A DNA stretch of 54,766 nucleotides, from contig JBNAVT010000004.1 of NCBI GenBank assembly GCA_049700215.1, forward strand, positions 39,587-94,352. The letters are read 5' to 3'. Numbering within the stretch: position 1 is the first letter of the stretch; each line of letters starts with the position of its first letter. This document shows, one piece after another, positions 9,213 to 54,606 of this stretch. The DNA is from Thermoproteota archaeon. GTDB taxonomy: Archaea; Thermoproteota; EX4484-205; JAAOZP01. The translations under genes and the position numbers were made by a program. A model generated the notes under the pieces. It was not told where the DNA came from. It worked only from the letters and a program-made list of their open reading frames with translations, and did no database searches.

Positions 9213-12194
9213 TTAAGCGCACGCTTTCTCGTAAATAAATACCTCAGCCTTATCCATCCCGAACGGTTTTAAAACATACTCATCCGTCCAATGCCTCTCA
9301 TCCTCAAAAGTCTCCGGCCCTATGTACAGGGGGTCTCCCCCCGCGTAGTGCAGCGGTCCGAAAGCATTTCTCAGATTTCCAACTATCCTCACCTTAAGCT
9401 GGTTACTCCCCCTCCTTACGAGCCTAGTCACATCCAGCGTGAAAGGATGCGTGAAGACCTTGCCAGCCTCCTGCCCGTTTAGATAGACTACGGCGAGCGA
9501 AGCCCTTAAGCCATCCAGCCTGAGGATAAACGTCCTACCGCCAGGGTCTTCATCGTATTGAAACTCTTTGCTCAACTCGAACGAGCCGACGTAAAACGGG
9601 TAGCCCTTTCTAGTCAGGTCACCGGTTTCAACCGGGACATGCTCTTCAACAACCACCGGGTTTCCCCCCGGGGGAAGCTCAACCCCGAATTCCCCGATTA
9701 GAAAAATGTTCTCCATCTCAGGCTCAATCCCGACTAGCCCTTCAAGCTCAACCTCGTTCTTACCCTCGCTTAAATACTCCGTCACGCTCATCACCCGGAG
9801 ACAATCGTCAATCCAGTGTCCCTCATCCCTCCAGAGAACATTTTTCCCGTTTATCCTCATCTTGAACAGGTGCGGCGTCTCAACGGCCAGCATAATCCCT
9901 TTTCCGAGAGGAGTGGTTTTTAACTCGAAATCAAACTTTAAAGTAAACCTCGTTCCAACACCTTCCGCAACAATCTGTTTTCTAGCCTTGCAAAGAGGCA
10001 TTTTTTCACTCCACTCGCCACCCGTCCTGTATCTACAGTAGTCTAAAACCAGAACATTAGGGTTAATCCGCCTAATATTCCAGCCTGCAGACAGGCGTAT
10101 TTCCGAGATTTTTCTAGGCGGGCTAGATAGACTCTTCGGCTTCCCCGGAGAAAAGGCAAGCAGGAGCGAGGAAACCGGTTCAAAAACATGCTCCAGATAC
10201 GTCCAGCCGTTCTCCAAATATCCTTCAAGCTCCGATATTGAGCCGCCAAGCGTATCCAAAAGTTTAATGCTGAAAGAACCTGGGAGCCCTATTCTAGCGT
10301 TCACAGCCCTATCCCTGCTCACGTTGAAAACGAACAGAACCATATCGCCAGCATCATCCCTCCTCAAATGGTATAGAAGGTTACCTTCCTCATCACCATC
10401 TATTTTCAAAGTTTTATGGTTGATCAAAACGTTGCTCAGAGACCCCTCGCTATAATCCTCTTTAACAGTGCTCCTATTTATGAGCTCAGCCAGCTCCATG
10501 CTCGGCTTCCCGTCAACCAGGCTTGGAAGCGGTTTAACGAACACTAATTCTCCTCCGGAGTCTTTAAACTTCCTTAAAAGCTTAACCGTGCTTCCAGCAA
10601 GCGTCAAGCAAGGCGGTACAACCACGACATCGTAGGAAGCATATCCAACCTTTAACCTCGAGCCCTCAACGCTAGCATGTTTCTCCATAAGCATCTCGTC
10701 GCCGAGGTCGAAGTCAACGTGTAGTTTCAGAAGGGACGTTAGCAGCCCTTTAAGCTGGCCATCCAGCAGCTTCACAGTAGAATCGTTTAGCGGAGAATAG
10801 CTTGCCCAAGCGCTTCCAATAGAGTGGATTACGAGCACGTTCACGACCCTCCTCCCCCTGGAAAGCACGTAGCAAAGTCTTGAAAAATGATCCTCCATAT
10901 GCTCGTTGTAATCCCACCATGGTTGACCCCAGTGGAAGTTCAACCCGTAGTCCCTTTTCCTCCTACCCCTCATCGAGTAGGGAACCAGGTGGTGGCACAT
11001 CAGGTTCACACCCATTGTTATAAGCCAGTCGCCAATCCACTTCCTGTCTTCGAAACTAGGGTAGTTACCTGTGCAACCATAGACCTCGCAAAGAACCCTT
11101 TCTTTTCCAAGCTGGTTCGCCGCCGATGAAACCTGTTTAGCAGTCAGCAGGCTCCCCCAGACATGCATACCCAAGTGATCTATTCCAGGAACATGCTGAT
11201 ACTCGTAGTGAGGCATGGCCGCACCTATGCGGATTGTTTGTCCAAGAAGGTCGTCCTCGCTCAAGTAGTGCCCAGTAAACTCCAGATTGTTCCTGCCGCA
11301 CCACTCGTACACCTGTTTTGAGAAAGACTTTAGGAAAAGCAGGGTGACGGTCCTCCAGAAGTCATACCGCACCTTCATGTAGTCGCCAACATCGAAGAAA
11401 AGCTTTGGAAGATGATCTATTAAATCATACCCGTTGACCTCCCTGAACTTCTCCGGAAGCCCGTCGGTCCAGGGCACTGAGAACGGGGGTATCCTGGGCC
11501 CTCTTGGAGGCATTGCTTGCCTCGGAGGCGGCCTGCTGGATGAGAAGTTCGGCTCATCCGTGAAAACCCCTGGAACAGTCTTTCCAACATGCTTCTTAAA
11601 ACGGTCGACGTAAGGCTTGTAAGCCAGGTTTAAGAATTGCTCGACCGTCTCGTAATCAAGAAGGTCGACGTAGCACGAGCTGTTGTACCAGGCCTCTCCG
11701 AGTGGCGCCACGTATTTCAGAAAGGTCAGATAGAGCCTCCCCGAATCCGCCTTCTCCTCGAAAACCCTCTTAAATTCCCTGGGAACCCCGTTCCCATTTA
11801 AAAAGCATTCGAAGCCCGCTATGACGTCCTCCCCCTCATAGGTTCTCGTGTCAACCATCATAACCAGTGCCTTAGCCCTATGCTTAGAGCTTGAGAAAGG
11901 GACAAGGCCTCCCGCGAAGCCGGAGGGCCACCAGAGCTCGTCGTAAATCCAGATGAACATGCCGTTTTCCTCCGCCTCCTCAACGGCAGCTCCGAAAGCA
12001 TCGAACCATTCCTTGCTCAGGAACGGTGTGACGAGGCCCTCTCTAGCGTGAAAGAACGCGCCCCCGTATCCAGCCCTGCCCAGGGACCGAACCTCCTCCC
12101 TAACTTTATCCTCAGTTAACAGATCGTTTATCGACCAGAATGGGGCGCCTTTAAAGGTTGAAACGGGTTTTCTAAATTCATTTTCTTCTATCAT
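9213..12194 (-). CDS. GH106-like glycoside hydrolase (alpha-L-rhamnosidase family)
   Basis: PFWSIN..GYGGAFFHAREGL..WIYDELWWPSGFAGG, FTDEP, VPGIDHL, LCEVYG; C-terminal beta-sandwich; start 12194 chosen from BRE/TATA at 12221-12234. Confidence 0.8.
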   Translation of the reverse strand: MIEENEFRKPVSTFKGAPFWSINDLLTEDKVREEVRSLGRAGYGGAFFHAREGLVTPFLSKEWFDAFGAAVEEAEENGMFIWIYDELWWPSGFAGGLVPFSSSKHRAKALVMMVDTRTYEGEDVIAGFECFLNGNGVPREFKRVFEEKADSGRLYLTFLKYVAPLGEAWYNSSCYVDLLDYETVEQFLNLAYKPYVDRFKKHVGKTVPGVFTDEPNFSSSRPPPRQAMPPRGPRIPPFSVPWTDGLPEKFREVNGYDLIDHLPKLFFDVGDYMKVRYDFWRTVTLLFLKSFSKQVYEWCGRNNLEFTGHYLSEDDLLGQTIRIGAAMPHYEYQHVPGIDHLGMHVWGSLLTAKQVSSAANQLGKERVLCEVYGCTGNYPSFEDRKWIGDWLITMGVNLMCHHLVPYSMRGRRKRDYGLNFHWGQPWWDYNEHMEDHFSRLCYVLSRGRRVVNVLVIHSIGSAWASYSPLNDSTVKLLDGQLKGLLTSLLKLHVDFDLGDEMLMEKHASVEGSRLKVGYASYDVVVVPPCLTLAGSTVKLLRKFKDSGGELVFVKPLPSLVDGKPSMELAELINRSTVKEDYSEGSLSNVLINHKTLKIDGDEEGNLLYHLRRDDAGDMVLFVFNVSRDRAVNARIGLPGSFSIKLLDTLGGSISELEGYLENGWTYLEHVFEPVSSLLLAFSPGKPKSLSSPPRKISEIRLSAGWNIRRINPNVLVLDYCRYRTGGEWSEKMPLCKARKQIVAEGVGTRFTLKFDFELKTTPLGKGIMLAVETPHLFKMRINGKNVLWRDEGHWIDDCLRVMSVTEYLSEGKNEVELEGLVGIEPEMENIFLIGEFGVELPPGGNPVVVEEHVPVETGDLTRKGYPFYVGSFELSKEFQYDEDPGGRTFILRLDGLRASLAVVYLNGQEAGKVFTHPFTLDVTRLVRRGSNQLKVRIVGNLRNAFGPLHYAGGDPLYIGPETFEDERHWTDEYVLKPFGMDKAEVFIYEKACA
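9216..9225. repeat. Decayed A(GC)nT motif AGCGCACGCT forming the last codons of the GH gene
   Basis: One transition away from AGCGCGCGCT; directly adjacent to the TAA stop. Confidence 0.55.
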
Positions 12195-12350
12195 TTCAGC
12201 CTGACGGTTGTTAAAGGAGTTATTTAACTTTTTCAAGAGAAGGAAGGAGAATCCATAGGCAAGCAGGAGTCGAGTGATGATGAATTAGGGTTGCCGTTTG
12301 AAGATGGAAACGTTTATATGTTGACGAATAGTCTGTTAAGGCGAAAAGCG

Positions 12351-16007: not shown

Positions 16008-17015
16008 ATGAAGCAGGAGGGAGGTGTGGGGAAGAGGGTTTTAATAGTTTGCCAGTTAGCACTAGGCCTACTCATCCTGATAATCCTGCTTCAGCAGGCA
16101 AATGTCGAAGAGACTTTTAAAACCCTGCTCTATGCTGATGCTAAATACGTCTTAGCTGGCTCCCTCCTTATACTGGCTGCCTCAACAATGATAGCGCTAT
16201 CCTTCTACTTTATCCTATCATCCTTAAAATACAAAGCTGGGCTTTCAAGCTGTATCCAAGCAAACTTCGCAGGCCAGTTGGCGAGTGATCTTACACCCGG
16301 GCGTGCAGGATACTTCATAACCCCGTTCGTAATGGAGGCACTTAGCGAAACCCCTTTCGAAGCATGCTTAGTGGCAACTGTCCTATCGGGCATGGTTGAC
16401 TTCATCATAAGGGCTTTCCTGACAATAGTCTCAATAGTATACCTAATCGGCCCAGTCGAATCTATTTCCGGAGTTCAATTGATTGTTGTTTTAAGCGCCA
16501 TAATTCTAGCAGCCAGCGCCCTAGGCTTCGCAGTGCTCCTCTGGTCCGATAAGCCTAGGAAACTCATACTGAGGCTAAGCTCGTTCAGGACCCTAGGCAG
16601 ATTCCTAAACCCTTACTTGAAGATGGTTGAAAACCTTCAGAAGGAGGGTGTTAAGGCTAAGAGGGCTCTGGGGCCGGTTGTTCTGGCCATGTTTTCAACA
16701 TCAATCCTAGACTCGATGGCCCTCTACTTTTTCTCCCTCTCCGTCGGGGTTGAGTTAAACCCAGCGTTATTCATCTTCATATACTCGCTTGTTTCAAGCT
16801 TCACCTATCTGCCTTTAACCCTAGCCGGCATAGGTGTGCAGGAAGGCGTTTTAGCAGCCTTGTTACATTTGTTCAGCGTGCCTCTTTCGCACGGCGTATC
16901 CGTATCGCTGCTTTTCCGATTCATATATACGGTGACTGATTTCATAGGGTTGCCGGCTCTTTTGAAGACAGGATTGGCGAAGGTTTTTAATAAAAAAGAC
17001 ATAAATAAACCCTAG
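16008..17015 (+). CDS. Lysylphosphatidylglycerol synthase TM / UPF0104 flippase-like protein
   Basis: SDLTPGRAG, LPLTLAGIGVQEG, SLLFRF motifs; polytopic membrane protein. Confidence 0.85.
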   Translation: MKQEGGVGKRVLIVCQLALGLLILIILLQQANVEETFKTLLYADAKYVLAGSLLILAASTMIALSFYFILSSLKYKAGLSSCIQANFAGQLASDLTPGRAGYFITPFVMEALSETPFEACLVATVLSGMVDFIIRAFLTIVSIVYLIGPVESISGVQLIVVLSAIILAASALGFAVLLWSDKPRKLILRLSSFRTLGRFLNPYLKMVENLQKEGVKAKRALGPVVLAMFSTSILDSMALYFFSLSVGVELNPALFIFIYSLVSSFTYLPLTLAGIGVQEGVLAALLHLFSVPLSHGVSVSLLFRFIYTVTDFIGLPALLKTGLAKVFNKKDINKP

Positions 17016-17043
17016 TGGGATTAGAGGTGTAACTCTGGGAGCA

Positions 17044-17053
17044 AGCGCGCGCT
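17044..17053. repeat. A(GC)4T palindrome (putative junction scar)
   Basis: Exact AGCGCGCGCT, intergenic. Confidence 0.8.
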
Positions 17054-25509: not shown

Positions 25510-25510
25510 G

Positions 25511-33383: not shown

Positions 33384-33395
33384 AGCGCGCGCGCT
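33384..33395. repeat. A(GC)5T palindrome (putative junction scar)
   Basis: Exact AGCGCGCGCGCT between two unrelated coding fragments. Confidence 0.85.
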
Positions 33396-33616: not shown

Positions 33617-33626
33617 AGCGCGCGCT
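33617..33626. repeat. A(GC)4T palindrome (putative junction scar)
   Basis: Exact AGCGCGCGCT; reading frame changes across it. Confidence 0.85.
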
Positions 33627-33827: not shown

Positions 33828-33835
33828 CGCGCGCT
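33828..33835. repeat. CGCGCGCT partial A(GC)nT motif
   Basis: Outer boundary of the fragment series. Confidence 0.65.
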
Positions 33836-35877: not shown

Positions 35878-35990
35878 ACATTGTTTCGACGGCGACTAGC
35901 GCCTAGAGTTAGGCTGGTTGCTGTGAAACGCGTAATTACGGCTAGAAAATGTTTAATACAGCCTGCTGTCCGTCCCTTGTGATGGGCACG

Positions 35991-36917: not shown

Positions 36918-36921
36918 GGAA

Positions 36922-39194: not shown

Positions 39195-39311
39195 GGCATG
39201 TGGTAGCAGGCTAATCACCATCCCGTTTTCAACACCTTTCTACGCGTATGCACGTCGATGCTGGTTCAGAAAAAGTTAATAGAAGCGGGAACGTGAATCT
39301 ACCGATGGGAA

Positions 39312-40799
39312 ATGAAGAGCACGAAAATAGGTTTAACAATGCTTCTCGACGAGAGGAAACATGTTTACCCAAGCTACTACGAGAAATGCTACAGGGTTGT
39401 TGAAAACTGGGCGAGGTTCATCAGGGACTCGATAAAGTTTTCAGACGGCGGTTCGCCGGAGACTGTGGTTTCGTCAGAACTCATAAATTCGATAAACTCA
39501 GCCAGAAGGGTTGGAGAAGAATTCCTGAGCAAAAGGGTTAAGCAGGTCATCCTAGTCTACAACGTCTGGGACTTCCCATACTTGGTTTGGCCCTTCGTAA
39601 ACACGCTGGGTAAGGATAAGCCGATACTCAGCCTTTCAAACAACGAGGGGAAGTATCCTGGCAACGTTGGCCTGCTCGCTACAGACGGTGCGTTGAGGCA
39701 GGCTGGTTTCCGGACGCATAGGATCGTCGGGGATCCTGACGACCCTCTTGTGAAGGAGAAGGTGAGGAAATGGGTCATGGCAGCAATAGCTGCAACAAAC
39801 ATTAGGAACGAGGTCTACGGCATGTACGGCGGGCACTCGATGGGGATGGAGACAGGCTATTTCCACCTCATCCCAGTGCAAAGGTATTTCGGAACAACCG
39901 TCAGCCAGGTTGACCAGCTGCTTCTAGTTGAGAAAATGAAGGAGATTGACGACCAGGAGGTGGAGAAAGGATTAAGATGGATGGAGGACACGATTGGAGA
40001 AATAAAGTACGACGAGAAAATGCTTACGAGGGAAACACTCGGTAAGCAGATAAGAATGTACCTCGCAGTCAGGCGGATAAACGAGGAGATGGGTTTCGAC
40101 TTCTGCGGGATAAAGGGTCAGAGGGAGCTTTCCGAGCACGTGGTGATTCCCGACGTCGCCGAGATGCTTCTGAACGACCCGTATGATTGGAACGGGCTGA
40201 AGGAGCCGACTGTCTGCGCCACTGAGGCAGACTCTTTCGCAGCACTCACCATGCAGATACTGAAGTATGTCAGCGGCGGGCTGCCTGTGCTTTTCATGGA
40301 TGTTCGGCTCTACCATCCTGACTTAAACGTGTGGGACTTCTGCAACTCGGGTAACCATGCGAGCTGGTATGCCTCGAGAAGCTTCAACCCGAGGGATAAT
40401 CTGAGAAAGGTTACGCTACACCCCGCGTTGGAACTCTACTTTAAAGCGGGAGGAGCCTCAGTCTCTTTCGACGCTGGACCAGGGGAGCTGACCTTCGCCA
40501 GACTAGGCTTATTTAACGACAAGATTTACATGATCATAGTTAAGGGTGAAAGCATAGAGCTCGACGAGGAAACAAGACGGAGGATTAACGCGGAAACTGA
40601 TCCCACGTGGCCTCACGTACACGCCAGGTTGAAATGCTCGTATGAAGAGTTCGTCGAAATGTTCCCGGCCAACCATATTCACGCTGTCGCTGGAGACCGT
40701 GTTCAAGAACTAAAATACTTCTGCGAAATAACTGGTGTGACACCCATCATCCTGGACGAGGAAAAGCATTCGAAGCCTATTTGGGATCTCCTCAAGTAG
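39312..40799 (+). CDS. L-fucose/D-arabinose isomerase family protein
   Basis: GGHSMGM, KGQRE, LNDPYDWNG.K, ATEAD, MDVR, CNSG, WPH, NHIH. Confidence 0.85.
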   Translation: MKSTKIGLTMLLDERKHVYPSYYEKCYRVVENWARFIRDSIKFSDGGSPETVVSSELINSINSARRVGEEFLSKRVKQVILVYNVWDFPYLVWPFVNTLGKDKPILSLSNNEGKYPGNVGLLATDGALRQAGFRTHRIVGDPDDPLVKEKVRKWVMAAIAATNIRNEVYGMYGGHSMGMETGYFHLIPVQRYFGTTVSQVDQLLLVEKMKEIDDQEVEKGLRWMEDTIGEIKYDEKMLTRETLGKQIRMYLAVRRINEEMGFDFCGIKGQRELSEHVVIPDVAEMLLNDPYDWNGLKEPTVCATEADSFAALTMQILKYVSGGLPVLFMDVRLYHPDLNVWDFCNSGNHASWYASRSFNPRDNLRKVTLHPALELYFKAGGASVSFDAGPGELTFARLGLFNDKIYMIIVKGESIELDEETRRRINAETDPTWPHVHARLKCSYEEFVEMFPANHIHAVAGDRVQELKYFCEITGVTPIILDEEKHSKPIWDLLK

Positions 40800-40870
40800 A
40801 GAGAATACTTGACCCGAGTCTTTCCCCCTCCACCATTATTTTTATAAACAGGCTAAAGCCTTTGAAAAGC

Positions 40871-41926
40871 ATGGAGACCAATTACGATCCTTTAAACATA
40901 TTTTTAGAAAAGTATGAGAAGGATAAGAGGGGTTTCTCCTTCGAAGCCAAGGATCTTTCAGAGTGGAAGACTTGGCGTCAGGGTTTTAGAAGAAAGCTTA
41001 CTGAGCTCATCGGCCTTGACTTCTTCGAATACACCGATATTTCTCCTGAAATAGTTTACAGGAAGAAGTACCCCGGCTACTTTAGGGAAAAAGTAATTCT
41101 GAGAAGCGACCCTTACACCGCAATACCGGCATACGTCTTGGTTCCAGAAGGGTGTGAAGAGCCTCTTCCTGCCGTGGTGGCTATGCATGGCCACGGTTAC
41201 GGTAAGGATGACCTAGTGGGTATTTGGGAGGATGGATCTGACCGTGTCAACCCCACGTCCAGAGGCTATCAGAAGGATTTCGCACTGGAACTGGTGAAAC
41301 GCGGGCTGCTCGTAATAGTGCCAGAGCAGAGTGGTTTCGGAGAACGCAGGACCAGAGACGATATTGCCAGGGGGAGCGAACAGAGCTCGTGTAAAGCTCT
41401 GTCCCTATGGGCGTTAATGATGGGAACGACAACCATAGGTCGGAGAGTATGGGACGCTATCAGGGTGGTGGACTATATTTTTACCAGAAGTGACGTTGAC
41501 CATTCAAGAATAGGAATGATGGGAATATCTGGAGGCGGGACCACGACGCTTTTCACGACAGCACTGGACGATAGAATTAAAGTTGTAGTGATAAGCGGCT
41601 ACCTTAATACTTTCAGAAGCAGCATACTGGCAGTGGACCACTGCATAGACAATTATGTTCCGGGAATACTTAGATACGGTGAGATGTACGATGTGGCAGC
41701 TCTAATTGCACCAAGGCCGCTGCTGGTAGAAAGCGGTTCCAAGGATCCAATATTCCCAATAGAGGCTGCGAAATACGCTTATGAGCAAATACGCAGAGCC
41801 TACGCCTTGCTGAAGGCTGAGGATAGGCTTGACGCAGACTTTTTCGAGGGGAGGCATGAGATAAGCGGGAGAAAATCATATGAATTCATGGTTAAATGGC
41901 TGAACGAATCTCCTGATGCCCAGTAA
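40871..41926 (+). CDS. Alpha/beta hydrolase (dienelactone hydrolase / carbohydrate esterase-like)
   Basis: MHGHG, GISGGG, HCIDNYVPG, APRPL, DPIFP, GRH. Confidence 0.85.
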   Translation: METNYDPLNIFLEKYEKDKRGFSFEAKDLSEWKTWRQGFRRKLTELIGLDFFEYTDISPEIVYRKKYPGYFREKVILRSDPYTAIPAYVLVPEGCEEPLPAVVAMHGHGYGKDDLVGIWEDGSDRVNPTSRGYQKDFALELVKRGLLVIVPEQSGFGERRTRDDIARGSEQSSCKALSLWALMMGTTTIGRRVWDAIRVVDYIFTRSDVDHSRIGMMGISGGGTTTLFTTALDDRIKVVVISGYLNTFRSSILAVDHCIDNYVPGILRYGEMYDVAALIAPRPLLVESGSKDPIFPIEAAKYAYEQIRRAYALLKAEDRLDADFFEGRHEISGRKSYEFMVKWLNESPDAQ

Positions 41927-41997
41927 CTTTAGCGACGGAACCGTTTCGGCAAAAATTAATTACTTCTCTCAAATGCTCACTACAGGTGAACAACGGG

Positions 41998-42792
41998 ATG
42001 AAGATATGGATAATGACGGATCTTGAAGGAGTTGCAGGGGTTTTCAGCTTCGATGAGCACGCGAGCCCCAAGGGCAGGTGGTATGATCTCTCGCGGAAAC
42101 TCTTAACCCAGGAGGTTAATGCTGCTGTCGAAGGAGCGTTGGAGCAGGGGGCAGGAGAGGTTCTAGTAGTCGATGGGCACGGGTGGGGTGGAGTAAACAT
42201 AGAGGAGTTACACCCTGAGGCTAAGCTTCTCGCAGGCAGGCCCCTCCTACTGCCATGGGGCTTAGAGAAGGGGTTTGAAGCAGCCTTCATGATCGGGCAG
42301 CACGCTATGGCTGGCGTGGAGAAGGCGCACTTGAGCCATACTGAGAGCCATACTGCTATTCAAAACGTTTGGATAAATGGTGTTAAAGCAGGCGAGATAG
42401 CTATAGTTGCAGCTGTAGCAGGATATTTTGAAGTTCCACTTGTTTTAGTCACAGGAGATAAGGCGGCATGTCTGGAGGCGGAGGCACTAATACCCGGGTT
42501 GGAAACAGTAGCCGTAAAGGAGGGGTTGAGCCATGGGGCGGCGGTAAGCGTAACACCGGTTAAGGCGAGGATGATGATTAAAGAGGGTGTGAAAAAGGCT
42601 ATGTTGAAAACAAGCATTATACCGCCCTTCAAAGTAGAAAAGCCGGTTAAGCTGGTTGTTGAGTTCACTGAAGAAAACAAGAGTTCTGCCGAAACACTGT
42701 CTAAAAGACCCGGCGTGAAAAAGATCGACGATAGAACAATAAAGATAGAGGGGAACGACCTGCTTGAAGCCCTCGAAAAATGGTGGATGTAA
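41998..42792 (+). CDS. dppA: M55-family D-aminopeptidase
   Basis: MTDLEGVAGV, EVNAA, DGHG, GQHA, LSHT, GEI, TGD. Confidence 0.9.
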   Translation: MKIWIMTDLEGVAGVFSFDEHASPKGRWYDLSRKLLTQEVNAAVEGALEQGAGEVLVVDGHGWGGVNIEELHPEAKLLAGRPLLLPWGLEKGFEAAFMIGQHAMAGVEKAHLSHTESHTAIQNVWINGVKAGEIAIVAAVAGYFEVPLVLVTGDKAACLEAEALIPGLETVAVKEGLSHGAAVSVTPVKARMMIKEGVKKAMLKTSIIPPFKVEKPVKLVVEFTEENKSSAETLSKRPGVKKIDDRTIKIEGNDLLEALEKWWM

Positions 42793-42838
42793 CCCTTGTA
42801 AAATGCTTTTCACAAAATGCGTTTTGTTTTAAAATAGT

Positions 42839-43477
42839 CTATTGCATTGTTTTTAGAAAGGGATTTATGCTCCTCTCCCTCGCAATCGTTGAGGATGGGC
42901 CGTGACCCGGATAAATCTTAGTCTCACCGGGAAGAACCATAAGCCTCGTCCTTATAGAATCCATAAGCTCCTTGAATGAGCCCTCTGGTAGGTCTGTTCT
43001 TCCGACAGCGCCTGCGAAAAGCGTATCCCCAGTTAAAACGGTAAGGCGGTTGAGCAACGATATGCTTCCCCTTGTATGACCAGGAGTATGAACAACCCTG
43101 AGACTAATCTTTCCGAAAACTATCGTGCTTCCATCGGTTAAAGTAGCGTCAGGCGTAACTGGTTCATGCCGGATGCCGAACAGAACCCGAAACCCCTGAA
43201 CGTCAGTCAACATTGGAGCATCATACTCATGGATTAAGACTGGCGCGCCAGTCGCCCTCTTCAACCATCCATCCCCAGAAGTATGGTCAGGATGCCAATG
43301 CGTATTGACGATATACTTGATGTCTGCACCATATTTCTCTGCCTCACCCATAATAGTCTGAAGCTCAGCCTCACGGGTAAACCCGGGGTCTATTACGATA
43401 GCCTGCCGTGTTTCCGGGCAAACAAGCAGGTAACAGTTGGTTTGCAACCCGCCGACTATAAACTTCCTGATTATCAT
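42839..43477 (-). CDS. Metallo-beta-lactamase-fold hydrolase (glyoxalase II-like)
   Basis: TNCY, THWHPDH, HTPGHT, TGDTLF, GRTD, PGHG. Confidence 0.9.
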   Translation of the reverse strand: MIIRKFIVGGLQTNCYLLVCPETRQAIVIDPGFTREAELQTIMGEAEKYGADIKYIVNTHWHPDHTSGDGWLKRATGAPVLIHEYDAPMLTDVQGFRVLFGIRHEPVTPDATLTDGSTIVFGKISLRVVHTPGHTRGSISLLNRLTVLTGDTLFAGAVGRTDLPEGSFKELMDSIRTRLMVLPGETKIYPGHGPSSTIARERSINPFLKTMQ

Positions 43478-43620
43478 CCCGTGGGGAAAAAGCCTTGAGC
43501 TTTAAAAACCTACGTTCAAAAACTCCCTCAACATGCGGAGAATTGTCTGCAGACCCATGTGGTAGGCGGTAGCTGAAGAAGAGGGTTTTAAAATCACGGC
43601 TATATTCTGGGGCCGAACCC

Positions 43621-44589
43621 CTAATCCTGAAAAACGTTTTCAACCTCCCTTTTCCTACCTGTTTTTACGAGACGCTCGATCTCTGAAAGGGCTTCCGGAA
43701 CACTCATCGGCCCCATTCTAGTAACCTTCAACGCGCCAGCCGCATTAGCGAACTCGAGAAGCTCTCTAAGCCCCCGTTTCTTTAAATAGCCGTATACTGC
43801 TGCAGCATCGAAAGCATCCCCGGCCCCGGTGGGGTCGACCTCTGGAACCATGTAGGCGGGCTCGAAAACCGTCTGCTGCTCACTTATACCTATGGAGCCC
43901 TTCTCGCCAATTTTCACTATTAAAAGTTTTACGCCATACTTGAATATTTCTTTCGAAGCCTCTTCAAGATTCTTCTTTCCAGCTAGGTCGAACAGCTCAG
44001 CCTTAGAAGGCATCACGATTTCAGCGGCTTCCAAAACTTTTTTCGATATTTTACTTATCATGCTGGGCTCTATCAGCTCAGCCCTAAGGTTCGGATCGTA
44101 AGTAACTACTATACCCGCCCTATTCGCTATTTCAACAGCCCTGTAGCAGGATTTCCTGATTTCCTCCCCTATGGAGAGCGTGGAACCCATGATGTGCAGA
44201 ACCTTGAACATTTTCACAAAATCCTCGTCCACATCCTCCGGCCTGATCCTGGAGGCTGCGGAATGCTTTAAGTGAAACACGAATCTTCTACTACCGTCTG
44301 AGAAGTATGTTACGAAGGCCATTCCAGTAGTGTATTCTCCACGGGTAAAAACACGCGTAGTGTCAACATTATCAGCGGCCAGCCTTTTCCTTAAAAGATT
44401 CCCGAAATCATCGTTTCCAACAGCACCGATTATGGCTGATTTCAAGCCCAGCCTGGAGGCAGTGTCTATGAAGATTGCGGGAGCGCCGCTTGGAAAAGGA
44501 CCAGCATATTCGCCAGTCTCATAATGAGGCATATCCCTCCCCTTCCTCACGAATTCAACAAGCACCTCGCCCAGTGTTAGGACATCCAT
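43621..44589 (-). CDS. PfkB-family sugar kinase
   Basis: SGAPAI, GAVGNDDFG, YDPNLR, DPTGAGDAF, FANAAGAL. Confidence 0.92.
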   Translation of the reverse strand: MDVLTLGEVLVEFVRKGRDMPHYETGEYAGPFPSGAPAIFIDTASRLGLKSAIIGAVGNDDFGNLLRKRLAADNVDTTRVFTRGEYTTGMAFVTYFSDGSRRFVFHLKHSAASRIRPEDVDEDFVKMFKVLHIMGSTLSIGEEIRKSCYRAVEIANRAGIVVTYDPNLRAELIEPSMISKISKKVLEAAEIVMPSKAELFDLAGKKNLEEASKEIFKYGVKLLIVKIGEKGSIGISEQQTVFEPAYMVPEVDPTGAGDAFDAAAVYGYLKKRGLRELLEFANAAGALKVTRMGPMSVPEALSEIERLVKTGRKREVENVFQD

Positions 44590-44727
44590 CCCGAATGATT
44601 TCCATTTAAGGAGGAGCTATAATATTTTTTTTCCTCAACGCGCAAGACTATAAAAAGTTGTAGTTGGTTCATGAAAACAACGCTTTTGACAAATGCTTAA
44701 ATGATAGTATTAAACAGAAGAGTCGGA

Positions 44728-45945
44728 ATGTCGGGCTCAAGTAGGGAAGATAAGGGGACAATGGAGAAGCGAATGTCCTGGTGGCTTGAAGCAAGGTTTG
44801 GCATGTTCATCCACTGGGGGCTCTACGCTATCCCTGCCCGCGGTGAATGGGTCATGTACTGTGAAAGAATACCTAAGAACGAGTACGCGCGTCTCGCTCA
44901 AAAATTCAATCCTAAAAGGTTTGACGCTGAAAAATGGGTTGCGCTTGCTAAGGAGGCTGGCGCCAGATACATGGTTTTAACCACGAGGCATCATGACGGT
45001 TTCTGCCTGTGGGACAGTAGCGTCTCAGACTTTACTTCCGTTAAGACAGCGGCGAAAAGGGATTTCGTAGCAGAGTATGTCGAGGCCTGCCGTAAAGCCG
45101 GCATGCGTATCGGCTTCTACTATTCCCTGCTAGACTGGCGTTGGCCAGCATACTGGGATGGGCCTGAGAAGAATCCGGAGGGCTGGAGAGAGTTTCGAAA
45201 CTATGTTCATGCTCAGGTTAGAGAGCTCGTGAGCAATTATGGCAAGATAGACATACTTTGGTACGACGGCGCGTGGCCCCACGGTCCGGATGCTTGGCAA
45301 TCCGAGCAGCTTAACGCGATGGTTCGCAGTCTTCAACCAGAAATAATAATCAACAACAGGTCAGGGCTGCCGGAGGATTTTGACACTCCTGAACAACGCA
45401 TAGAAGGGTCTAAAAGGCCTTGGGAAGCATGCATGACTATAGACGACCTCTGGTGGGGGTATCATCCCGGCGACCCGAATCTAAAATCCCCGATGCAACT
45501 TGTGCGAAACCTGGTTAAGTGCGTCTCCGGAAACGGGAATTTCCTTTTAAACGTAGGCCCTAAGGCAGACGGCACTATTCCGCTGGAGCAGGCAGCCAGA
45601 ATGAGAGCCGTTGGACGATGGCTGCGGCGAAACGGGGAATCCGTATACGGTGCTGGAGCCGCGCCCTTCCCACAGCCTCATCTGGGTCAAGTCACCATGA
45701 AGGGTAACAGGGTGTACCTGCACGTCATGTTCTGGCCTGGAAGAGAAATGTGTGTAGCCGGTATCAAGAACAAGGTTTTAAAGACCTACATGCTGACGAG
45801 CGGAAGAAAACTACAGTTTGAGCAGAAGGAAGACCGTCTTTTCATACGTGGACTACCGTTGCGCGCGCCGGATCCAATAGACACCGTGGTTGTCTTGGAG
45901 GTGGAAGGCGAGCCCGAGGCAGCCCCACCATCCTTCTGGAAATAG
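44728..45945 (+). CDS. GH29 alpha-L-fucosidase
   Basis: ARFGMFIHWG, TTRHHDGF.LW, YYSLLDW, ILWYDG, INNR, WEACMT, LLNVGP. Confidence 0.93.
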   Translation: MSGSSREDKGTMEKRMSWWLEARFGMFIHWGLYAIPARGEWVMYCERIPKNEYARLAQKFNPKRFDAEKWVALAKEAGARYMVLTTRHHDGFCLWDSSVSDFTSVKTAAKRDFVAEYVEACRKAGMRIGFYYSLLDWRWPAYWDGPEKNPEGWREFRNYVHAQVRELVSNYGKIDILWYDGAWPHGPDAWQSEQLNAMVRSLQPEIIINNRSGLPEDFDTPEQRIEGSKRPWEACMTIDDLWWGYHPGDPNLKSPMQLVRNLVKCVSGNGNFLLNVGPKADGTIPLEQAARMRAVGRWLRRNGESVYGAGAAPFPQPHLGQVTMKGNRVYLHVMFWPGREMCVAGIKNKVLKTYMLTSGRKLQFEQKEDRLFIRGLPLRAPDPIDTVVVLEVEGEPEAAPPSFWK

Positions 45946-45959
45946 ATGTGTTAACGGCT

Positions 45960-46712
45960 CTAGAATTCTAGATTCAGCCTTTTTCTTTCACCAACTATAT
46001 GCTCAGCAACCTCTGCCACGGGAGCAACCCATATCTCGTCGCGATGCTTATGCAGGAATCTTAAAAACCCGGAGAGGTCTTCGTAGGAAACAGGCAGGTG
46101 CCCCTCGTCAATACCGTGGAACGTGAATATGGCCCATCTACCCTCGTGAACAGTCTTAACGGTTAAGCCTATCATCTCTTCACACCGCATTCTGTCGGCT
46201 GACCATGACCATAGCTCGTGCAGGTCGCAGGCGAGAGGTGAATTAGAATAGCCTTTTTCCCCAGAAGCCCTGGCAGCCAGGAAGATTTCAGCCACAACCG
46301 GCACGTAGCTCCTCTTATTCAAGCCCCTGCCGACACTGGTTTGGTAACATGGGTATGCGAACGTCCGGCTACCATCAGGTATAACCCGTCTTATCCTATC
46401 ATGAGCCTCAACTATGTCCATGCGAATATCCTCCAGAGTCATGTTCTCCAGCCCTCTGCAACCAGGGTCTCCTGGAAAGTTGCATGAGCAAGGGTGCGTA
46501 ACAGTGTGATTACCTATTTCATGACCACGCTCAGCAACCTCCCTCCATGCTTTCAAAAAATCCCCATACTCTTCCTTAGGATTTACGTAGAACGTTGCCT
46601 TAAAGCCGAGCTCCTCGAGCAGAGGCACGCCTAGATCCAGTTGCGAATGCAAACCATCGTCGAAAGTCAGTGAGACGGCTCCTTTAAAGCCGCTCGGCCA
46701 ATTAAACCTCAT
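45960..46712 (-). CDS. Polysaccharide deacetylase (NodB/CE4) family
   Basis: SLTFDDG, HEIGNHTVTH, FAYP, FHG. Confidence 0.88.
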   Translation of the reverse strand: MRFNWPSGFKGAVSLTFDDGLHSQLDLGVPLLEELGFKATFYVNPKEEYGDFLKAWREVAERGHEIGNHTVTHPCSCNFPGDPGCRGLENMTLEDIRMDIVEAHDRIRRVIPDGSRTFAYPCYQTSVGRGLNKRSYVPVVAEIFLAARASGEKGYSNSPLACDLHELWSWSADRMRCEEMIGLTVKTVHEGRWAIFTFHGIDEGHLPVSYEDLSGFLRFLHKHRDEIWVAPVAEVAEHIVGERKRLNLEF

Positions 46713-46845
46713 AACGCAACATTTTCAAGGCATGCTTTAAAAACTTAACCAAGACTTCTGAAAAACTAGCGTGCATTAACACATCCAGCAGGCAAGACCC
46801 ATATCAAGATCCTTAATCATTATTAAGACTTCCGAACGATTTTTA

Positions 46846-46856
46846 TCGCGCGCGCT
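46846..46856. repeat. TCGCGCGCGCT (A(GC)nT-type motif, one flank missing)
   Basis: Intergenic; a short coding-like remnant (MGLEDYGVFR, minus strand) runs into it. Confidence 0.7.
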
Positions 46857-47081
46857 CTGAAAACACCATAGTCCTCCAGCCCCATCCTCCTTTAAGCCAT
46901 CGTCAAGCACGGCTAACACTATTATGGGACGCATGGGAGGCTGACATTTGAAATAAGCCCGGTAGAAAACGTTTTTAGAGCGTTTTTACCTGGTCTCAGG
47001 GGCACCGGGTCTTGCAGGGCATTCGGGAACACGCTTTTCGACAAAATTTATAACAAGGTTTTTCCATCTACCTCCAGCAGC

Positions 47082-50000
47082 ATGAAATACTGGGGAAACA
47101 GTAAAACGATTTTGACAATTCCAGTATTAGCATTAACTCTCTTAACACTGCCTCTCGAAACCATTTTTACGGATTGGCATAATATAGATGGGAAACAAGC
47201 GTTCTTCCAAACAGGCATGGTAATCGATGCCGCAGCCTCACCCGCTGTCTCAATGCGCGTAAAAGTTCTGAACGCTTTAACTGGTGAAGCAATTCCCAAC
47301 GCTACTTTAATAATTCTGGACTTAAAGAACCCCAGAAGGCCGGAGGTGGGGCAAAGCATTTTCTTCACGAATGCGGATGGAGAGTATAATGTTCCAGAGG
47401 AAATTGTAAAACCTGGGAGGATCTATTGGGTTTACGCCTACAAGGGGAACCTTAAGGAGAAGAAGATAGACTTCGTGCCAGTTAAAAAGGAGATTCGTGT
47501 CGGAGAAACCGGCAGTATTGAAGTGAACCTTTCACTGGTTCCTGGCGCACTAGTGGAATTGGAAAGCGTTCCATATATCGTTCAAGCATCAAGCCTTCAA
47601 GAAGGCAACATGATAATAAAAGTCATAGTGAAACAGAAGGGTTTTAATTTCTCGTTGATCACTGACTACGGGGACGCGATAGACGTTTTCTACCTGGGGC
47701 TGGACAGGAAAATGATCCCGGTCCCGTCTGAAACGCCTTTCGACCTTGAGGTCAGCGTCTCGCTCGTACTCCGAGAACGCGAGCGAGTATCAGAGATTTT
47801 CTACATTATGAACGGGACGCAACCCTTCATTATGCCGCAGAGAAGTTACGCATCCGTTAAAATTTCAGAGTATAGTCTAAGGAGAGGCTTGGAGTACGTG
47901 AAATCAGCCCTAGTAGGGGTTTCTTCAAAGGTTGACGAGGCGCAGGAAATCGGGTTCACGGTTTTCGAGGAGAGGCGCACACTGGAGCACGCAAACCAGA
48001 AACTGGTAGAGGCTAATACCCTGCTGTCAAACGCGCAAACAGAGGAAGATTTTGAAAAAACATGGTTTACACTCCGGGAAATACTTGGGGAAATAAATTT
48101 CGTAGCCACGATGATAGAAAGCAAGTATCTGGTTGGAAAGACTAACGCGGTTTACCTCTCCGCAGTAATCGTGGTATTCAGCACTGTTCTCGCATTCTTC
48201 TTCTTTGAAAAAACCAGGTTAAAAATTGTTTCATTAGCCGTCATCTACGTAGCACTATTGGGAATCATGTATTTTATAAACCCGGGTACTCACGTTGTAA
48301 TCGATGAAAACCTTCCACTCTTCTCCTGGACGGCAGCCGTCTCCTTCATCATAACCTCTACTATTGTCTTCGGCATTCCGCGCATCTGGAAGGAAAGGAA
48401 TATTGAGGGGGAGGTTCAATGGAGGAGCGCCATCTCAGTAATATTCTCAATGAGTAAGCGCCAGATAAAACGCAAAAAGATACGCGGCTTCTTCACAATA
48501 TTTTCAATATGCATGCTTATTTTAGCGTTCACCGCGCTAACTACTTTCGGAACAGCCTTCGGAATAATCTCTAAGAGAGTGGAAGGAACCCCGTCTTCAG
48601 ACGGTTTCCTCATAAAGCGCATGGTTAACAGCTCATCCCTAATCTTCTCCCCCCTGGGGGCGGGGGATGCTGAAGTCCTCCTGAAGATAGCGCCCGCGAT
48701 TAATGTGGCGCCAAGGATGAAAAACGTTCCGCGGTACGACCCGGTTGCCAGACTCGTAAACCCGGCCACCGGCAACAGCTACCCTATTTATGGCGTGCTC
48801 GCTATATCGCCGGGAAACGAAACCCTTTACACGATGCTCGACGAGATGGTTGAAGGCAGTTATTTAAGCGACGAAGCGTATGGTGGAGCAATCTTAGGAT
48901 TCGGAACGTTGAACAGACTAGGCTTAAAAGTAGGCAGCAATGCCACGTTGGAGATACCGGGCACCACGATAACGGAAACCATCGTAGTCAAGGGCTTCAT
49001 CAGGGATGAGGAGTATGAGAGGCTGACGGATGTTGACGGCAGCCCTCTCGGCCCCGCGCGTCTCCTTCAAGACGGTTCGGTGAGAAGGTGCAACGGTTCA
49101 GAGGTAATAGTGATTAACCTTGAGACTGCGAAGAGAATTCAGGAGAAGATTAACAGTCTCTACGGTGCAAACGCCCCTCAGCTCGTCGTCCCTTCCGAGA
49201 TACTTTTCAGGCTGAGAGACCCGGAAGACGCGGGAGCAGTTGTCAGAAGCATAATTTTCTTCTTCAACTACGATGTCTTCGTCTCATCTAAAGGCGTAGT
49301 AAACTACTACTATATTGGCTCATACATAGAGTTCGGCGGGGCTGCGGAGCTGCTGATTCCACTAGTGATGGTTGTCTTAAGCATAGGCATGGTTATGGTC
49401 AACAGTGTCTACGAGCGTGAAAGAGAAATAAGGATTCTTTCAACACTCGGGTTAAACCCGACGCATATAGGATTAATGTTCGTGGCTGAAGCAATAATAA
49501 TGGGGATGGTTGGAGGAAGCATCGGATACTTAACCGGACTAGGCTTCTACAGAACCATGGTTTTCATAGGGCAGAACCTTTTAGAAAACCTCATGGTTAG
49601 AGAGAAACTGGAATGGTGGTGGAGTGCACTGGGATTTGTTTTCGCAGTAGCCGTCTCAGTATTCTCGGCTGCAAGACCCGCAGCCCTAGCTATCCGTACG
49701 TACACGCCTTCGATGGTGAAGAGGGTCAGGAGAACAGAGGAGCAGCGGAAGGAGCGGAAGGAGAAAATATTCAGGGTTTACCAGGCGAGAAGCGTCAGCA
49801 TGCCCGTGAAAATACTCGCTAACGAGAAGGACTTCTTCACAGGCTTCCTCATCGACCATTTAAACCAGTTGAGAACAGGCTATAAGGAGAGGATTGAAAA
49901 CGTTGAGGATATTCCGGAGGCGGTAGACTCTAAAGGCGTCGCGACGAAAACCATAAGGTTCAACTACTATTTTGGACCCATGGAGCATAAGAACGGGACG

Positions 50001-50177
50001 AGGAATAGCCTAGTCTTAACCAAGATCCCGAGTGAAGAATACTACAGGGTTAAACTAGTCACTGAGCCAACATCCCCCGGGATTCCGGAGAACATGATAG
50101 ACAGAACAGTAGACTATGTCCACTGGATCCTTATGCTCTGGGTTAAGGAGAAGAAGAGGATAATGGGCACGGCTTAA
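47082..50177 (+). CDS. Large FtsX/MacB-like permease family membrane protein
   Basis: N-terminal signal/TM, prealbumin-like domain, TM bundle, extracellular domain, SVYEREREIRILSTLGLNP..I..MF.AEA FtsX motif. Confidence 0.85.
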   Translation: MKYWGNSKTILTIPVLALTLLTLPLETIFTDWHNIDGKQAFFQTGMVIDAAASPAVSMRVKVLNALTGEAIPNATLIILDLKNPRRPEVGQSIFFTNADGEYNVPEEIVKPGRIYWVYAYKGNLKEKKIDFVPVKKEIRVGETGSIEVNLSLVPGALVELESVPYIVQASSLQEGNMIIKVIVKQKGFNFSLITDYGDAIDVFYLGLDRKMIPVPSETPFDLEVSVSLVLRERERVSEIFYIMNGTQPFIMPQRSYASVKISEYSLRRGLEYVKSALVGVSSKVDEAQEIGFTVFEERRTLEHANQKLVEANTLLSNAQTEEDFEKTWFTLREILGEINFVATMIESKYLVGKTNAVYLSAVIVVFSTVLAFFFFEKTRLKIVSLAVIYVALLGIMYFINPGTHVVIDENLPLFSWTAAVSFIITSTIVFGIPRIWKERNIEGEVQWRSAISVIFSMSKRQIKRKKIRGFFTIFSICMLILAFTALTTFGTAFGIISKRVEGTPSSDGFLIKRMVNSSSLIFSPLGAGDAEVLLKIAPAINVAPRMKNVPRYDPVARLVNPATGNSYPIYGVLAISPGNETLYTMLDEMVEGSYLSDEAYGGAILGFGTLNRLGLKVGSNATLEIPGTTITETIVVKGFIRDEEYERLTDVDGSPLGPARLLQDGSVRRCNGSEVIVINLETAKRIQEKINSLYGANAPQLVVPSEILFRLRDPEDAGAVVRSIIFFFNYDVFVSSKGVVNYYYIGSYIEFGGAAELLIPLVMVVLSIGMVMVNSVYEREREIRILSTLGLNPTHIGLMFVAEAIIMGMVGGSIGYLTGLGFYRTMVFIGQNLLENLMVREKLEWWWSALGFVFAVAVSVFSAARPAALAIRTYTPSMVKRVRRTEEQRKERKEKIFRVYQARSVSMPVKILANEKDFFTGFLIDHLNQLRTGYKERIENVEDIPEAVDSKGVATKTIRFNYYFGPMEHKNGTRNSLVLTKIPSEEYYRVKLVTEPTSPGIPENMIDRTVDYVHWILMLWVKEKKRIMGTA

Positions 50178-50186
50178 GCGCGCGCT
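50177..50186. repeat. A(GC)4T palindrome overlapping the stop codon of the permease gene
   Basis: TAAGCGCGCGCTT; perfect 12-bp palindrome at 50176-50187. Confidence 0.8.
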
Positions 50187-50187
50187 T

Positions 50188-50211
50188 GAAAAGGCTGATG
50201 CAAACCTTTTC
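50188..50211 (+). terminator. Possible hairpin terminator GAAAAGG-N10-CCTTTTC
   Basis: 7-bp inverted repeat just after the stop codon. Confidence 0.3.
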
Positions 50212-50288
50212 CGGCTTCTCACGCCAACCACACTGTTGCAGCAAGGGGGTTGAAAAAGGCATAAATTTGAGCAGAATATTAGACTCGT

Positions 50289-51766
50289 GTGGACGCTGGA
50301 GCACCATACATCCTTGGTATCGACCTCGGAACCTCAGCATGCAAGACGGTCGTCTTCACTTTAGACGGCAGGAGGGTTTCATCCGCCTCCAGGGAATATC
50401 CTGTTATTCAGCCTCAGCCAAGGTGGGCTGAGCAGAATCCTCTAGACTGGTGGAGAGCAGTGGTTGAAACCATAAGGGAAAGCCTCTGGAGAGCAGGGGT
50501 AGAGGGCAGCCAGATAGTTGGCCTAGCCGTTGACTCTCAGCGGGAGGCTGTAGCGCGCGCGCTACTGAGGCGCAGACTGAGAAGATGAGGAGCCTGCTGG
50601 ACGAGGAAACTGTTCTCCGCACGACGGGCGTTGGGATAAACCAGGTTTTCTCAGCATCGAAAATCCTCTGGCTTAAGGAAAACCTTCCAAACGTGTTTTC
50701 AAGGACCAGAGTATTCCTCTGCGCGAAGGACTTCATTATCTACAGGCTGACTGGGGAGAAAGTCACAGACTACTCTATAGCGTCGAGAACAATGCTGTTC
50801 GACATAAGGAGAAAAACATGGTCACCAGAAATATGCTCAGCCCTCAGCATACCTGTAGACAAGCTCCCACAACCCCGGGAATCCAGCATTATCGTTGGAG
50901 AAGTCTCCCACCAGGCCTCAGCTGAAACATCCCTACCTAGAGGCTTGCCAGTTGTAAACGGCGGGGGCGACAGGCCCTGCGAGTGTCTGGGAGCAGGAGT
51001 GGTTAAGGAGGGCTCAGTCAATATAGGGACTGGCACAGGTTCCACTTTCGAAGCCCCGTTGAGCAAGCCAAACCCTGATTTGAAGGGAAGGGTTAACTGT
51101 TGCTGCCACGTGATCCCAGGCACATGGGAGTATGAAGCATCCATCTCGACAACAGGCGGAGCCCTACGCTGGTTCAAGGATGTTTTCGGGGAAAGGGAGG
51201 TGGAGGAGGCGGAGAAAACGGGTAGAGACCCTTACGATTTAATAACTCAAACCGCTTCTGAAACAAGCCCGGGTGCAGACGGTCTTTTCTTCTACCCTTA
51301 TTTAGCAGGTGCTTTCCCACCCAGAGTGGACGGTAGGGCGCGCGCCGTTTTCTTCGGCATCAGCCTATTCCACTCTAAGGGCCACTTCGCCAGAGCCATA
51401 TTGGAAGGAGTGGCCTTCCACTATCTTGTGATGCTTAAACTCCTGAAGGAGCTTGGCGTAGAAATAGCTGAAGCAAGCATAGTTGGAGGCGAGGCAAAGA
51501 GCGATTTCTGGAACCAGGTTAAGGCAGACGTAACCGGTATAAGAATAAGGATCCCTGAGGTTGAGGACGCTGCCGCAATGGGGTCAGCCCTACTCGCAGG
51601 CATCGGCACAGGCCAGTATACGAGTGTACAGAAGGCTGTTGAATCAACGGTGAGAACAAGGAGGGTATACGTGCCTAACGCTGAGAACCACTCGGCTTAC
51701 TTGAAGCTGTACGAGAAATACGAAGCAATATACGCGTTGATCTCGAAGGGATATGATGTTTACTAG
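50289..51766 (+). pseudogene. FGGY-family carbohydrate kinase (xylulokinase-like) disrupted by an internal deletion and frameshift at about 50552
   Basis: ORF 50289-50588 has ILGIDLGTS.CK...AEQNP..WW...DSQRE; ORF 50585-51766 continues SKILWLKE, GGGD, GTG, RAILEG, GGEAKS; the conserved D..G.P....I.W.D.R segment is missing. Confidence 0.88.
50550..50565. repeat. Perfect 16-bp palindrome GTAGCGCGCGCGCTAC (core A(GC)5T) at the deletion junction
   Basis: Sits exactly where kinase similarity breaks and the frame shifts. Confidence 0.9.
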
Positions 51767-51787
51767 CAAACATGCTTATTCAACAGG

Positions 51788-54297: not shown

Positions 54298-54301
54298 GTC
54301 A

Positions 54302-54588: not shown

Positions 54589-54598
54589 TGTTTCCGAG

Positions 54599-54606
54599 AG
54601 CGCGCT
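54599..54606. repeat. A(GC)3T palindrome (putative junction scar)
   Basis: AGCGCGCT between the gene remnant and the AbrB promoter. Confidence 0.65.

Follow-up and report, generated by a model that had tools for sequence, protein, structure and literature searches.

We analysed a stretch of 54,766 nt from a Thermoproteota archaeon (GenBank assembly GCA_049700215.1, contig JBNAVT010000004.1), hereafter the window; coordinates without a prefix are window positions. Short palindromes of the form A(GC)nT recur in the window and throughout its genome, and comparison with related genomes places them at sites where orthologous sequence has been lost, replaced or rearranged, with the alternating GC run itself missing from the relatives. 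We have high confidence that these scars are real, and moderate confidence in the mechanism we propose for them. In that mechanism the motif is the scar of a break joined via a self-complementary [T]A(GC)3-5T[A] linker, a reading which, on the evidence below, we regard as evenly poised.

The window's own genome, G000, comprises 2,089,643 bp in 85 contigs and has 49.2% G+C. Its nearest available genome, G002, represents a sister species with 92-93% nucleotide identity over tens of kb, and G007, G010, G011 and G013 serve as outgroups within the genus (~81-84% identical to G000). Occurrence was assessed in a genus set of 17 genomes, one per species, and in a phylum set of 401 genomes. Two sequencing runs were consulted as Logan contigs, which are an independent assembly: X1, the run of the probable source sample, and X2, containing a relative from another study. 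Two further runs, X3 and X4, yielded short pieces only, at 90-99% identity, and were not used.

The original prediction, made from the letters of the window alone, had listed eight motif sites, all of which were recovered at their positions by exact matching. The 10-mer AGCGCGCGCT occurs at 17044, 33617 and 50177, and AGCGCGCGCGCT at 33384 and 50552; dinucleotide shuffles of the window contain on average 0.02 copies of the former (none of 100 shuffles reached three copies) and 0.00 of the latter, so the earlier chance estimate of about 0.04 copies of the 10-mer per window was of the right order. The copy of AGCGCGCT at 54599 is not significant alone, as the shuffle mean for this word is 0.69. 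The remaining two sites are one-flank runs, CGCGCGC at 33828-33834 and CGCGCGCGC at 46847-46855. Three other alternating runs (43243, 45861 and 51338) lie inside long open reading frames (ORFs) and are conserved or point-substituted in G002; they are therefore ordinary coding sequence.

Genome-wide, G000 carries 118 copies of AGCGCGCGCT, 53 of A(GC)3T, 33 of A(GC)5T and two each with n = 6 and n = 7, a distribution that peaks at n = 4. A maximal-order Markov expectation was uninformative here, as the sub-words are dominated by the motif itself, and other palindromic 10-mers were used for comparison instead. The alternating controls ACGCGCGCGT, TGCGCGCGCA and GGCGCGCGCC are found twice each and TCGCGCGCGA once; only the phase A-G-C...G-C-T is therefore enriched. 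Over the 208 sites with n of at least 3, T is found at position -1 in 117 and A at position +1 in 107, and nothing is conserved beyond these bases: the unit is [T]A(GC)nT[A] alone, not the tip of a longer repeat. We considered and rejected the idea that existing motif copies are copied together with their flanks: T-flanked ends share the preceding 4-, 5- and 6-mers in 105, 26 and 9 pairs, against 119, 32 and 8.6 for random positions. No open frame of at least 80 codons runs across 67% of the 118 10-mers, compared with 10% of 3000 random positions, a figure that alone cannot separate spacers from broken genes, as a scar in a gene breaks the frame anyway. When G000 was aligned with itself by BLAST, homology between paralogous copies stopped next to a GC run in five cases.

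The principal evidence that the motif marks joints comes from alignment of G000 with its sister species. Within the 856 kb of G002 read for this genome-scale comparison, we assigned 67 strong GC-run sites to classes according to the state of the orthologous sequence: 11 are colinear and of the same size, nine are replacements, 24 retain one flank only and 23 neither flank. The corresponding classes for 1500 random positions in G002 are 993 undisturbed, 39 replacements, 197 with one flank and 268 with none, the last three positions being rearranged. Motif sites are thus markedly depleted in undisturbed colinear sequence (P = 3e-16), and further Fisher tests on the class counts gave P = 1e-4 and P = 4e-6; the enrichment at synteny breakpoints that had been proposed as a check was found. 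For the one-flank cases we rely on these class counts and dropped a measure of how far from the motif homology ends, as control flanks reach the site too. Among 49 runs of at least 8 bases in G002, six have a context of the same size in G000 and two of these share the run, neither being A(GC)nT. The scars therefore postdate the split between the two species, which differ at 7% of positions.

Twelve events in the G000/G002 comparison are clean, in that the alignment reaches to within 3 nt of the run on either side. At these sites one genome has 6-12 nt including the run where its sister has -5, 1, 7, 11, 19, 24, 30, 204, 206, 320, 1752 or 1993 nt. All 12 carry 6-10 nt of alternating GC missing from the sister genome; 11 of the 12 have lost between 1 and 1993 nt, one shows no loss of flank, and in none is a TA duplicated. 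Parts of the 320 nt missing at G000 C29:7193 are present in G007, G010, G011 and G008, and the event is therefore a deletion in G000. The claim that the motif arose de novo at loci whose unrearranged orthologues lack it was thus borne out by the alignments with G002 and the outgroups. The companion claim, that a fixed A...T flank is inserted together with the GC units, stands in part: the GC run is inserted, whereas flank bases of the A type are compatible with the ancestor in 10 of 19 cases across the clean events, compared with about 30% by chance. Ancestral GC or TAGC is present at the left joint in four of the G002 deletions, and TA is ancestral on both sides in some events. Flanks compatible with the ancestor are better explained by microhomology use at a TA(GC)nTA linker than by strict tailing with A-GCGC.

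The sites in the window, and a block that has moved between contigs, are as follows (strand is given where it applies).

17044..17053: AGCGCGCGCT, intergenic, 29 nt past the stop of the ORF at 16008..17015.
33255..33626, minus strand: gene remnant of ~320 nt that contains AGCGCGCGCGCT (33384-33395) and ends with AGCGCGCGCT (33617-33626).
33828..33834: one-flank run CGCGCGC, in a non-conserved stretch upstream of a corrinoid-protein gene.
46846..46856: ATCGCGCGCGCT, between divergent ORFs at 45960..46712 (minus strand) and from 47082 (plus strand).
50177..50186: AGCGCGCGCT, overlapping the TAA stop of an FtsX-like permease gene (ORF 47082..50177).
50552..50563: AGCGCGCGCGCT, at an internal deletion of an FGGY kinase gene, the pieces of which are 50289..50588 and 50585..51766.
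54599..54606: AGCGCGCT, at a homology breakpoint; identity with G002 reaches 54598 and stops where the motif begins.
35929..51776, plus strand: moved block of 15.9 kb, in place in G000, G007 and G011 and on another contig in G002.

The FGGY kinase gene provides the most direct view of a change at a single site. Its Pfam match is split over two ORFs (profile positions 1-82 and 114-241), and G000 has CGCGCGCGCT in place of 59 nt of coding sequence, with the frame shifted. The 59 nt are kept in G002, G007, G010, G011 and G013, and are present in G009 with indels of 2-3 nt. At the joint TAG is ancestral, and the T on the right is not. In contigs from both X1 and X2, 59 letters separate 50553 from 50564, exactly as many as the intact segment of the gene has, and X2 agrees with X1 in these letters; the X1 contig matches the window perfectly over flanks of 199 and 842 nt and has these 59 letters where the G000 genome has 10. 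The intact allele and, presumably, the deleted one thus coexist in one community. The gene in G009 (L008, G009:C9) is damaged differently: over window positions 50290-50620 the alignment has gaps of 1-2 nt, homology is lost after ~50600, and the aligned stretch contains no GC run.

At the other window loci the run likewise stands where relatives have something else. At 17044, G002 has GTAGCCATC and G000 has GCAAGCGCGCGCTATC, the run being missing from the orthologous site. The remnant at 33255..33626 corresponds in G002 to an open frame that spans at least 1338 aa and matches no Pfam family; the region at 33384 measures 16-17 nt in G000 against 22-23 nt in G002, and homology with G002 (contig C2) ends at 33617. 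The run at 46846 stands in place of ~30 nt of G002 sequence (CCAAGCC...GCATT), and at 50177 a spacer of more than 40 nt, found in G002 and other relatives, is missing in G000. At 33828, one X1 contig matches the window up to the run and then turns unrelated, and another (33793-35125) spans the site, a pair that indicates a structural variant within the sample.

The moved block of 15.9 kb is bounded in G002 by TAGCGCGCGA on the left and TGCGCGCGCTA on the right, and its original flanks are contiguous elsewhere in G002. The relative in X2 departs from the window at 34464 and 51776, and its own breakpoints carry CGCGCTA... and ...AGCGCGCTA, the latter lying 6 nt past 51776. There is one linker per joint, including both ends of the moved block and both sides of small pieces that replace kilobases. 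In three close motif pairs that we examined for captured filler, the sequence between the motifs included a middle of 765 nt, native but diverged (72% identity), and a piece of 65 nt without a match. A 675 nt piece at G000 C14:22811-23494, with the motif on both sides, contains an ORF of ~184 aa, to which a paralogue on C30 has 38% identity; G002 has ~1.4 kb at this place.

Some neighbouring features deserve mention. A single orphan repeat of the clustered regularly interspaced short palindromic repeat (CRISPR) type lies at 33641-33671, 15 nt from the motif at 33617, and matches long arrays in G008 (C11, C15); an X1 contig has an additional 31 nt spacer and repeat there. A methanol:corrinoid methyltransferase gene (MtaB, 30515-31885) and a B12-binding corrinoid-protein gene (33958-34605) enclose a HEPN/minimal-nucleotidyltransferase pair (32094-32971) and the decayed region, which contains three of the GC scars.

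The joints invite comparison with the footprints left by Tc1/mariner-IS630 transposons, which likewise have a palindromic form between TA borders. TA...TA flanks around a palindromic core could come from an ultra-short mobile palindrome, or from the footprint that a TA-targeting cut-and-paste element leaves on excision (TA, element ends, TA), and the TA that is ancestral on both sides of some events would fit. Such an origin predicts net insertion at a single TA; only one of the 12 clean events occurred without loss, none duplicates TA, and the right-hand T of the FGGY joint is not ancestral. Flanking sequence is lost here, whereas a few bases are gained in Tc1/mariner-IS630 footprints. The corresponding transposase family, DDE_3, was found in none of the 17 genus genomes and in none of five others outside the genus (the closed genome G105, and G138, G370, G406 and G098), and self-BLAST of G000 revealed no high-copy element. 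We consider a transposon origin quite improbable.

A second possibility is that the motif came first and the damage later: a (GC)n tract is inserted, and this sequence, prone to form Z-DNA or cruciforms, then provokes breaks, deletions and rearrangements. Z-DNA-forming runs do induce deletions. Sites in G000 are also clustered, with 24% of gaps between neighbours below 500 bp against 9% under random placement. In line with a general avoidance of alternating GC, among words significantly absent from bacterial genomes (GC)6 is reported to be the most frequent, in 36 species (PMC8034619). However, intact orthologues, at the FGGY gene and at other clean events, have no motif at either edge of the segment that was lost, and the intact X1 allele has exactly the expected 59 letters between identical flanks. 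A source of the specific A(GC)4T would still be needed. We therefore judge this order of events unlikely; instability induced by the motif may add to the clustering of sites.

Could the palindromes be a product of library preparation, sequencing or assembly? The deposited genome and the X1 Logan contig disagree at 50552, and sites are enriched near contig ends in G000 (21 of 327 within 200 bp, 5.3 expected). Against this, Logan contigs contain the motifs at 50177 (X1 contig covering 49043-50375, no differences) and at 46846 (X1 contig covering 43818-47759, one difference); counts are lineage-specific, ranging from 118 to 0 over the 17 species, across different projects and assemblers; and the closed genome G105 carries the motif. 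One of the eight window sites lies inside an otherwise intact gene, which fits selection acting on inherited changes. G000 contains 15 scaffold gaps of 100 N and four of 10 N, none adjoined by a GC run; the window itself starts directly after a 100-N gap (G000:C4:39487-39586). With the motif present in several species whose genomes were assembled by different groups, in a closed genome and in independently assembled contigs, the expectation that it would not be confined to one library type held, and an artefact is very unlikely, its probability being close to negligible.

Our proposed mechanism would begin with one or more breaks, followed by variable loss of sequence (from 0 to ~2 kb in the clean cases). 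The ends would then be bridged by a short self-complementary linker with consensus TA(GC)4TA, in which n = 3 to 5 is common. This linker, a perfect palindrome of which two copies could pair, may arise as 3' tails that are added to both ends and then anneal, or as a small duplex, and would be attached to the ends via 0-4 nt of microhomology (TA, TAG or GC). As every end would receive the same palindromic linker, any two ends could be joined, and a universal linker of this kind would account for plain deletions, for short replacements, for fragment patchworks that have a linker at every joint, and for the 15.9 kb block that moved with linkers at both ends. Selection would subsequently clear scars from needed genes, and the survivors would be found in spacers, decaying genes, and variable or defence islands. 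From the aligned sequences we infer the breaks as the starting point, the self-annealing of the GC run that makes the joint, and the activity that makes the run. The template-independent tailing polymerase suggested in the original prediction is possible as that activity.

Several points weigh against linker joining and need to be set beside this evidence. There are only 12 clean events, and just two events had their polarity checked against outgroups. Among five internal indels of at least 4 nt in one 20 kb alignment, a single one carries the motif, and the linker is therefore a frequent joining route, not the sole one. A one-step change is seen at the FGGY locus alone, from Logan contigs, among which no contig of the (GC)5 allele was seen and which give no allele frequencies. 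Simple annealing of tails predicts neither the strict phase (always A-G-C and not A-C-G) nor the mode at n = 4, and the patchy distribution of the motif is unexplained by linker joining as proposed. Finally, no enzyme tracking the motif was found among the classes searched (RVT_1, Ku, DDE_3, PolX and Prim-Pol), and no gene shared by G105 and G000 stood out by similarity.

The primase-polymerase, nucleotidyltransferase and reverse-transcriptase-like enzymes put forward earlier as candidates did not track the motif, nor did Ku. RVT_1 was absent from all 17 genus genomes and from the same five others; Ku (PF02735) was absent from all 17, the Bacillus subtilis control being positive; and no match to the PolX palm (PF14792) exceeded the cut-off in the 17, weak matches being frames of 113-191 aa that resemble minimal nucleotidyltransferases. 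Prim-Pol (PF09250) was found in one of the 17 (G002) and one of the five (G138), not in G000 or in the closed G105; no LigD-specific model was searched. The G002 match (L088, G002:C63:3908-4321) lies in an open frame of 966 aa, and the two in G138 in frames of 806 and 855 aa. A search for a shared accessory gene, in which 1999 ORFs from the 1.35 Mb of G105 that was read (23% of that genome being left out) were compared by blastp with 2899 ORFs of G000, matched 654 with a median identity of 39%, a maximum of 71% and no outlier, the proteins being unannotated. The agent is either an ordinary replication or repair enzyme used unusually in some lineages, or an unrecognised protein family.

The first of these options leads to an account with no dedicated enzyme, in which a primase or polymerase at the break leaves the run as a by-product: through fold-back or 2-nt pairing of GC or TA, the end slips and is re-extended repeatedly until the joint is stable. 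Four G002 deletions in which the left joint already had GC or TAGC in the ancestor, and the lack of a special polymerase family tracking the motif, are consistent with this. It would be the in vivo counterpart of the untemplated or hairpin-elongation synthesis described for thermostable polymerases, in which Taq and Vent make self-complementary short repeats (CTATAG, GTATATAC) without a template (PMC13061963). The likeness extends to the thermophilic origin of the enzymes; the products differ in being made in vitro and AT-rich, with CG repeats rare except for Taq (PMC13061963), and such products are not known to enter genomes. A universal enzyme also leaves unexplained why the motif is found in one of the six genomes of G105's genus and ranges from 118 copies to 0 in the window's genus, and slippage would fix neither the A-G-C phase nor the A...T flanks. 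We hold the by-product account to be somewhat unlikely.

The distribution of the motif is highly uneven. Copies of AGCGCGCGCT in the 17 species of the genus number 118, 88, 70, 33, 32, 18, 16, 6, 3 and 3, with 0 in the other seven, and the reversed control word has 0-3. Outside the genus, five members of the phylum set carry at least 4 copies of the 12-mer TAGCGCGCGCTA: G105 (5), G138 (4), G370 (4), G406 (12) and G280 (12, with 4 of the control). The 10-mer counts in these five genomes are 22, 30, 35, 40 and 90, compared with controls of 0, 0, 1, 3 and 29. Enrichment thus extends to two other families of the phylum, in which four to five genomes show it.

G105 is of particular value, as it is a closed single-contig genome (1,750,259 bp) from another family, and its five congeners, three of them single-contig, carry 0-1 copies of the 12-mer. 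In the 1.35 Mb read, which has 46.5% G+C, there are 17 copies of AGCGCGCGCT and 0-1 of the other alternating palindromic 10-mers. Sites are clustered at 0.69-0.73 Mb and at 1.63-1.67 Mb; the second, denser cluster surrounds an island (L292:3445-14309, at 1.643-1.654 Mb) that encodes DUF1156 and DUF499 proteins, an SNF2/ResIII helicase with a NOV_C domain, and a protein of metallo-beta-lactamase fold. Two G105 sites were compared with the congeners, and at both homology begins or ends at the motif. A minus-strand tRNA gene with an intron, at L215:1391-1512, was identified by eye (ARAGORN and Rfam returned nothing on five G105 loci); TAGCGCGCGCTA directly adjoins its 5' end, and its upstream region falls short of that in a congener by ~500 nt. 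Each congener has 17-19 places that match the initial ~35 nt of this tRNA region.

Among viral sequences, 36 IMG/VR contigs carry TAGCGCGCGCGCTA once each; most are GC-rich, which is consistent with chance. Six were inspected, and clusters were found in the low-GC L302, L322 and L319 alone (37-44% G+C; 3-5 runs in 1.5-3 kb). These clusters have the form TA(GC)nTA, and L322 and L319 are two records of the same element, with shared sites. Comparison of the six viral loci with G000 proteins by blastx gave one weak match (L327, 24% identity).

Archaeal deletion repair uses plain microhomology, and we know of no end-joining pathway that adds a fixed sequence. Joining by Ku and LigD and archaeal microhomology-mediated end joining both resemble the events described here in that unrelated ends are joined with small losses and a few bases of microhomology. 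They differ in that Ku is absent from the genus genomes (0/17) and in that every clean joint has 6-10 nt of alternating GC; plain microhomology-mediated joining is direct, without an insert, whereas 12 of 12 clean events carry inserted GC. Repetitive extragenic palindromic (REP) elements and miniature inverted-repeat transposable elements (MITEs) are likewise extragenic, palindromic, lineage-specific and present in hundreds of copies; however, they are longer (at least 20 nt) and share sequence beyond the core, whereas here only T at -1 and A at +1 are shared and sequence is replaced.

Interstitial telomeric repeats of vertebrates are reported to be inserted during double-strand-break repair in a telomerase-mediated manner (PMC2246262, PMC7215372), and resemble the present motif as short fixed repeats at sites where the orthologous locus of related species is empty, read as filler. 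They differ in that TTAGGG is reverse-transcribed from telomerase RNA; here the sequence is a GC palindrome, RVT_1 is lacking (0/17, 0/5) and sequence is usually lost. Telomeric-repeat insertion is the nearest analogue in logic. The DRT3 defence reverse transcriptases of bacteria are described as writing protein-templated poly(GT/AC) in phage defence (PMC13174585, PMC13314766), and thus provide an example of an enzyme that writes an alternating dinucleotide repeat without a nucleic-acid template. Their product differs, the available portions of these reports state no link to genome junctions, and no reverse transcriptase was found in the genomes examined here. A literature search (exact strings, archaeal junctions, filler DNA, Brockarchaeota) yielded no description of the phenomenon among the matches listed, supplements not being covered; the full text of PMC8065059 has no mention of palindromes, repeats, GCGC, pseudogenes, transposition or DNA repair, again excluding supplements. 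We regard the phenomenon as lying outside the known kinds of system.

We put forward tentatively, as a possibility, a more specific form of linker joining. Some Thermoproteota, including this Brockarchaeota-like genus and the lineage of the closed genome, and some viruses may possess a Ku-independent route in which an unrecognised protein writes the self-complementary TA(GC)n on broken ends without a nucleic-acid template. Its determinant would be accessory and patchily inherited or transferred, and its activity would drive deletion, gene decay and the reshuffling of defence islands.

Little is understood of how archaea without Ku repair breaks. The genomes described here record hundreds of joints with the same signature, which makes this open question testable, and with one closed carrier (G105) and five closed or near-closed relatives free of the motif, association mapping is feasible. 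The scars also carry a warning for annotation, as genes adjoining A(GC)nT are often broken. A protein that writes TA(GC)n, if there is one, would represent a new kind of DNA-writing enzyme; should an ordinary polymerase be the cause, the scars are still a ready marker with which deletions, gene decay and island turnover can be dated and counted.

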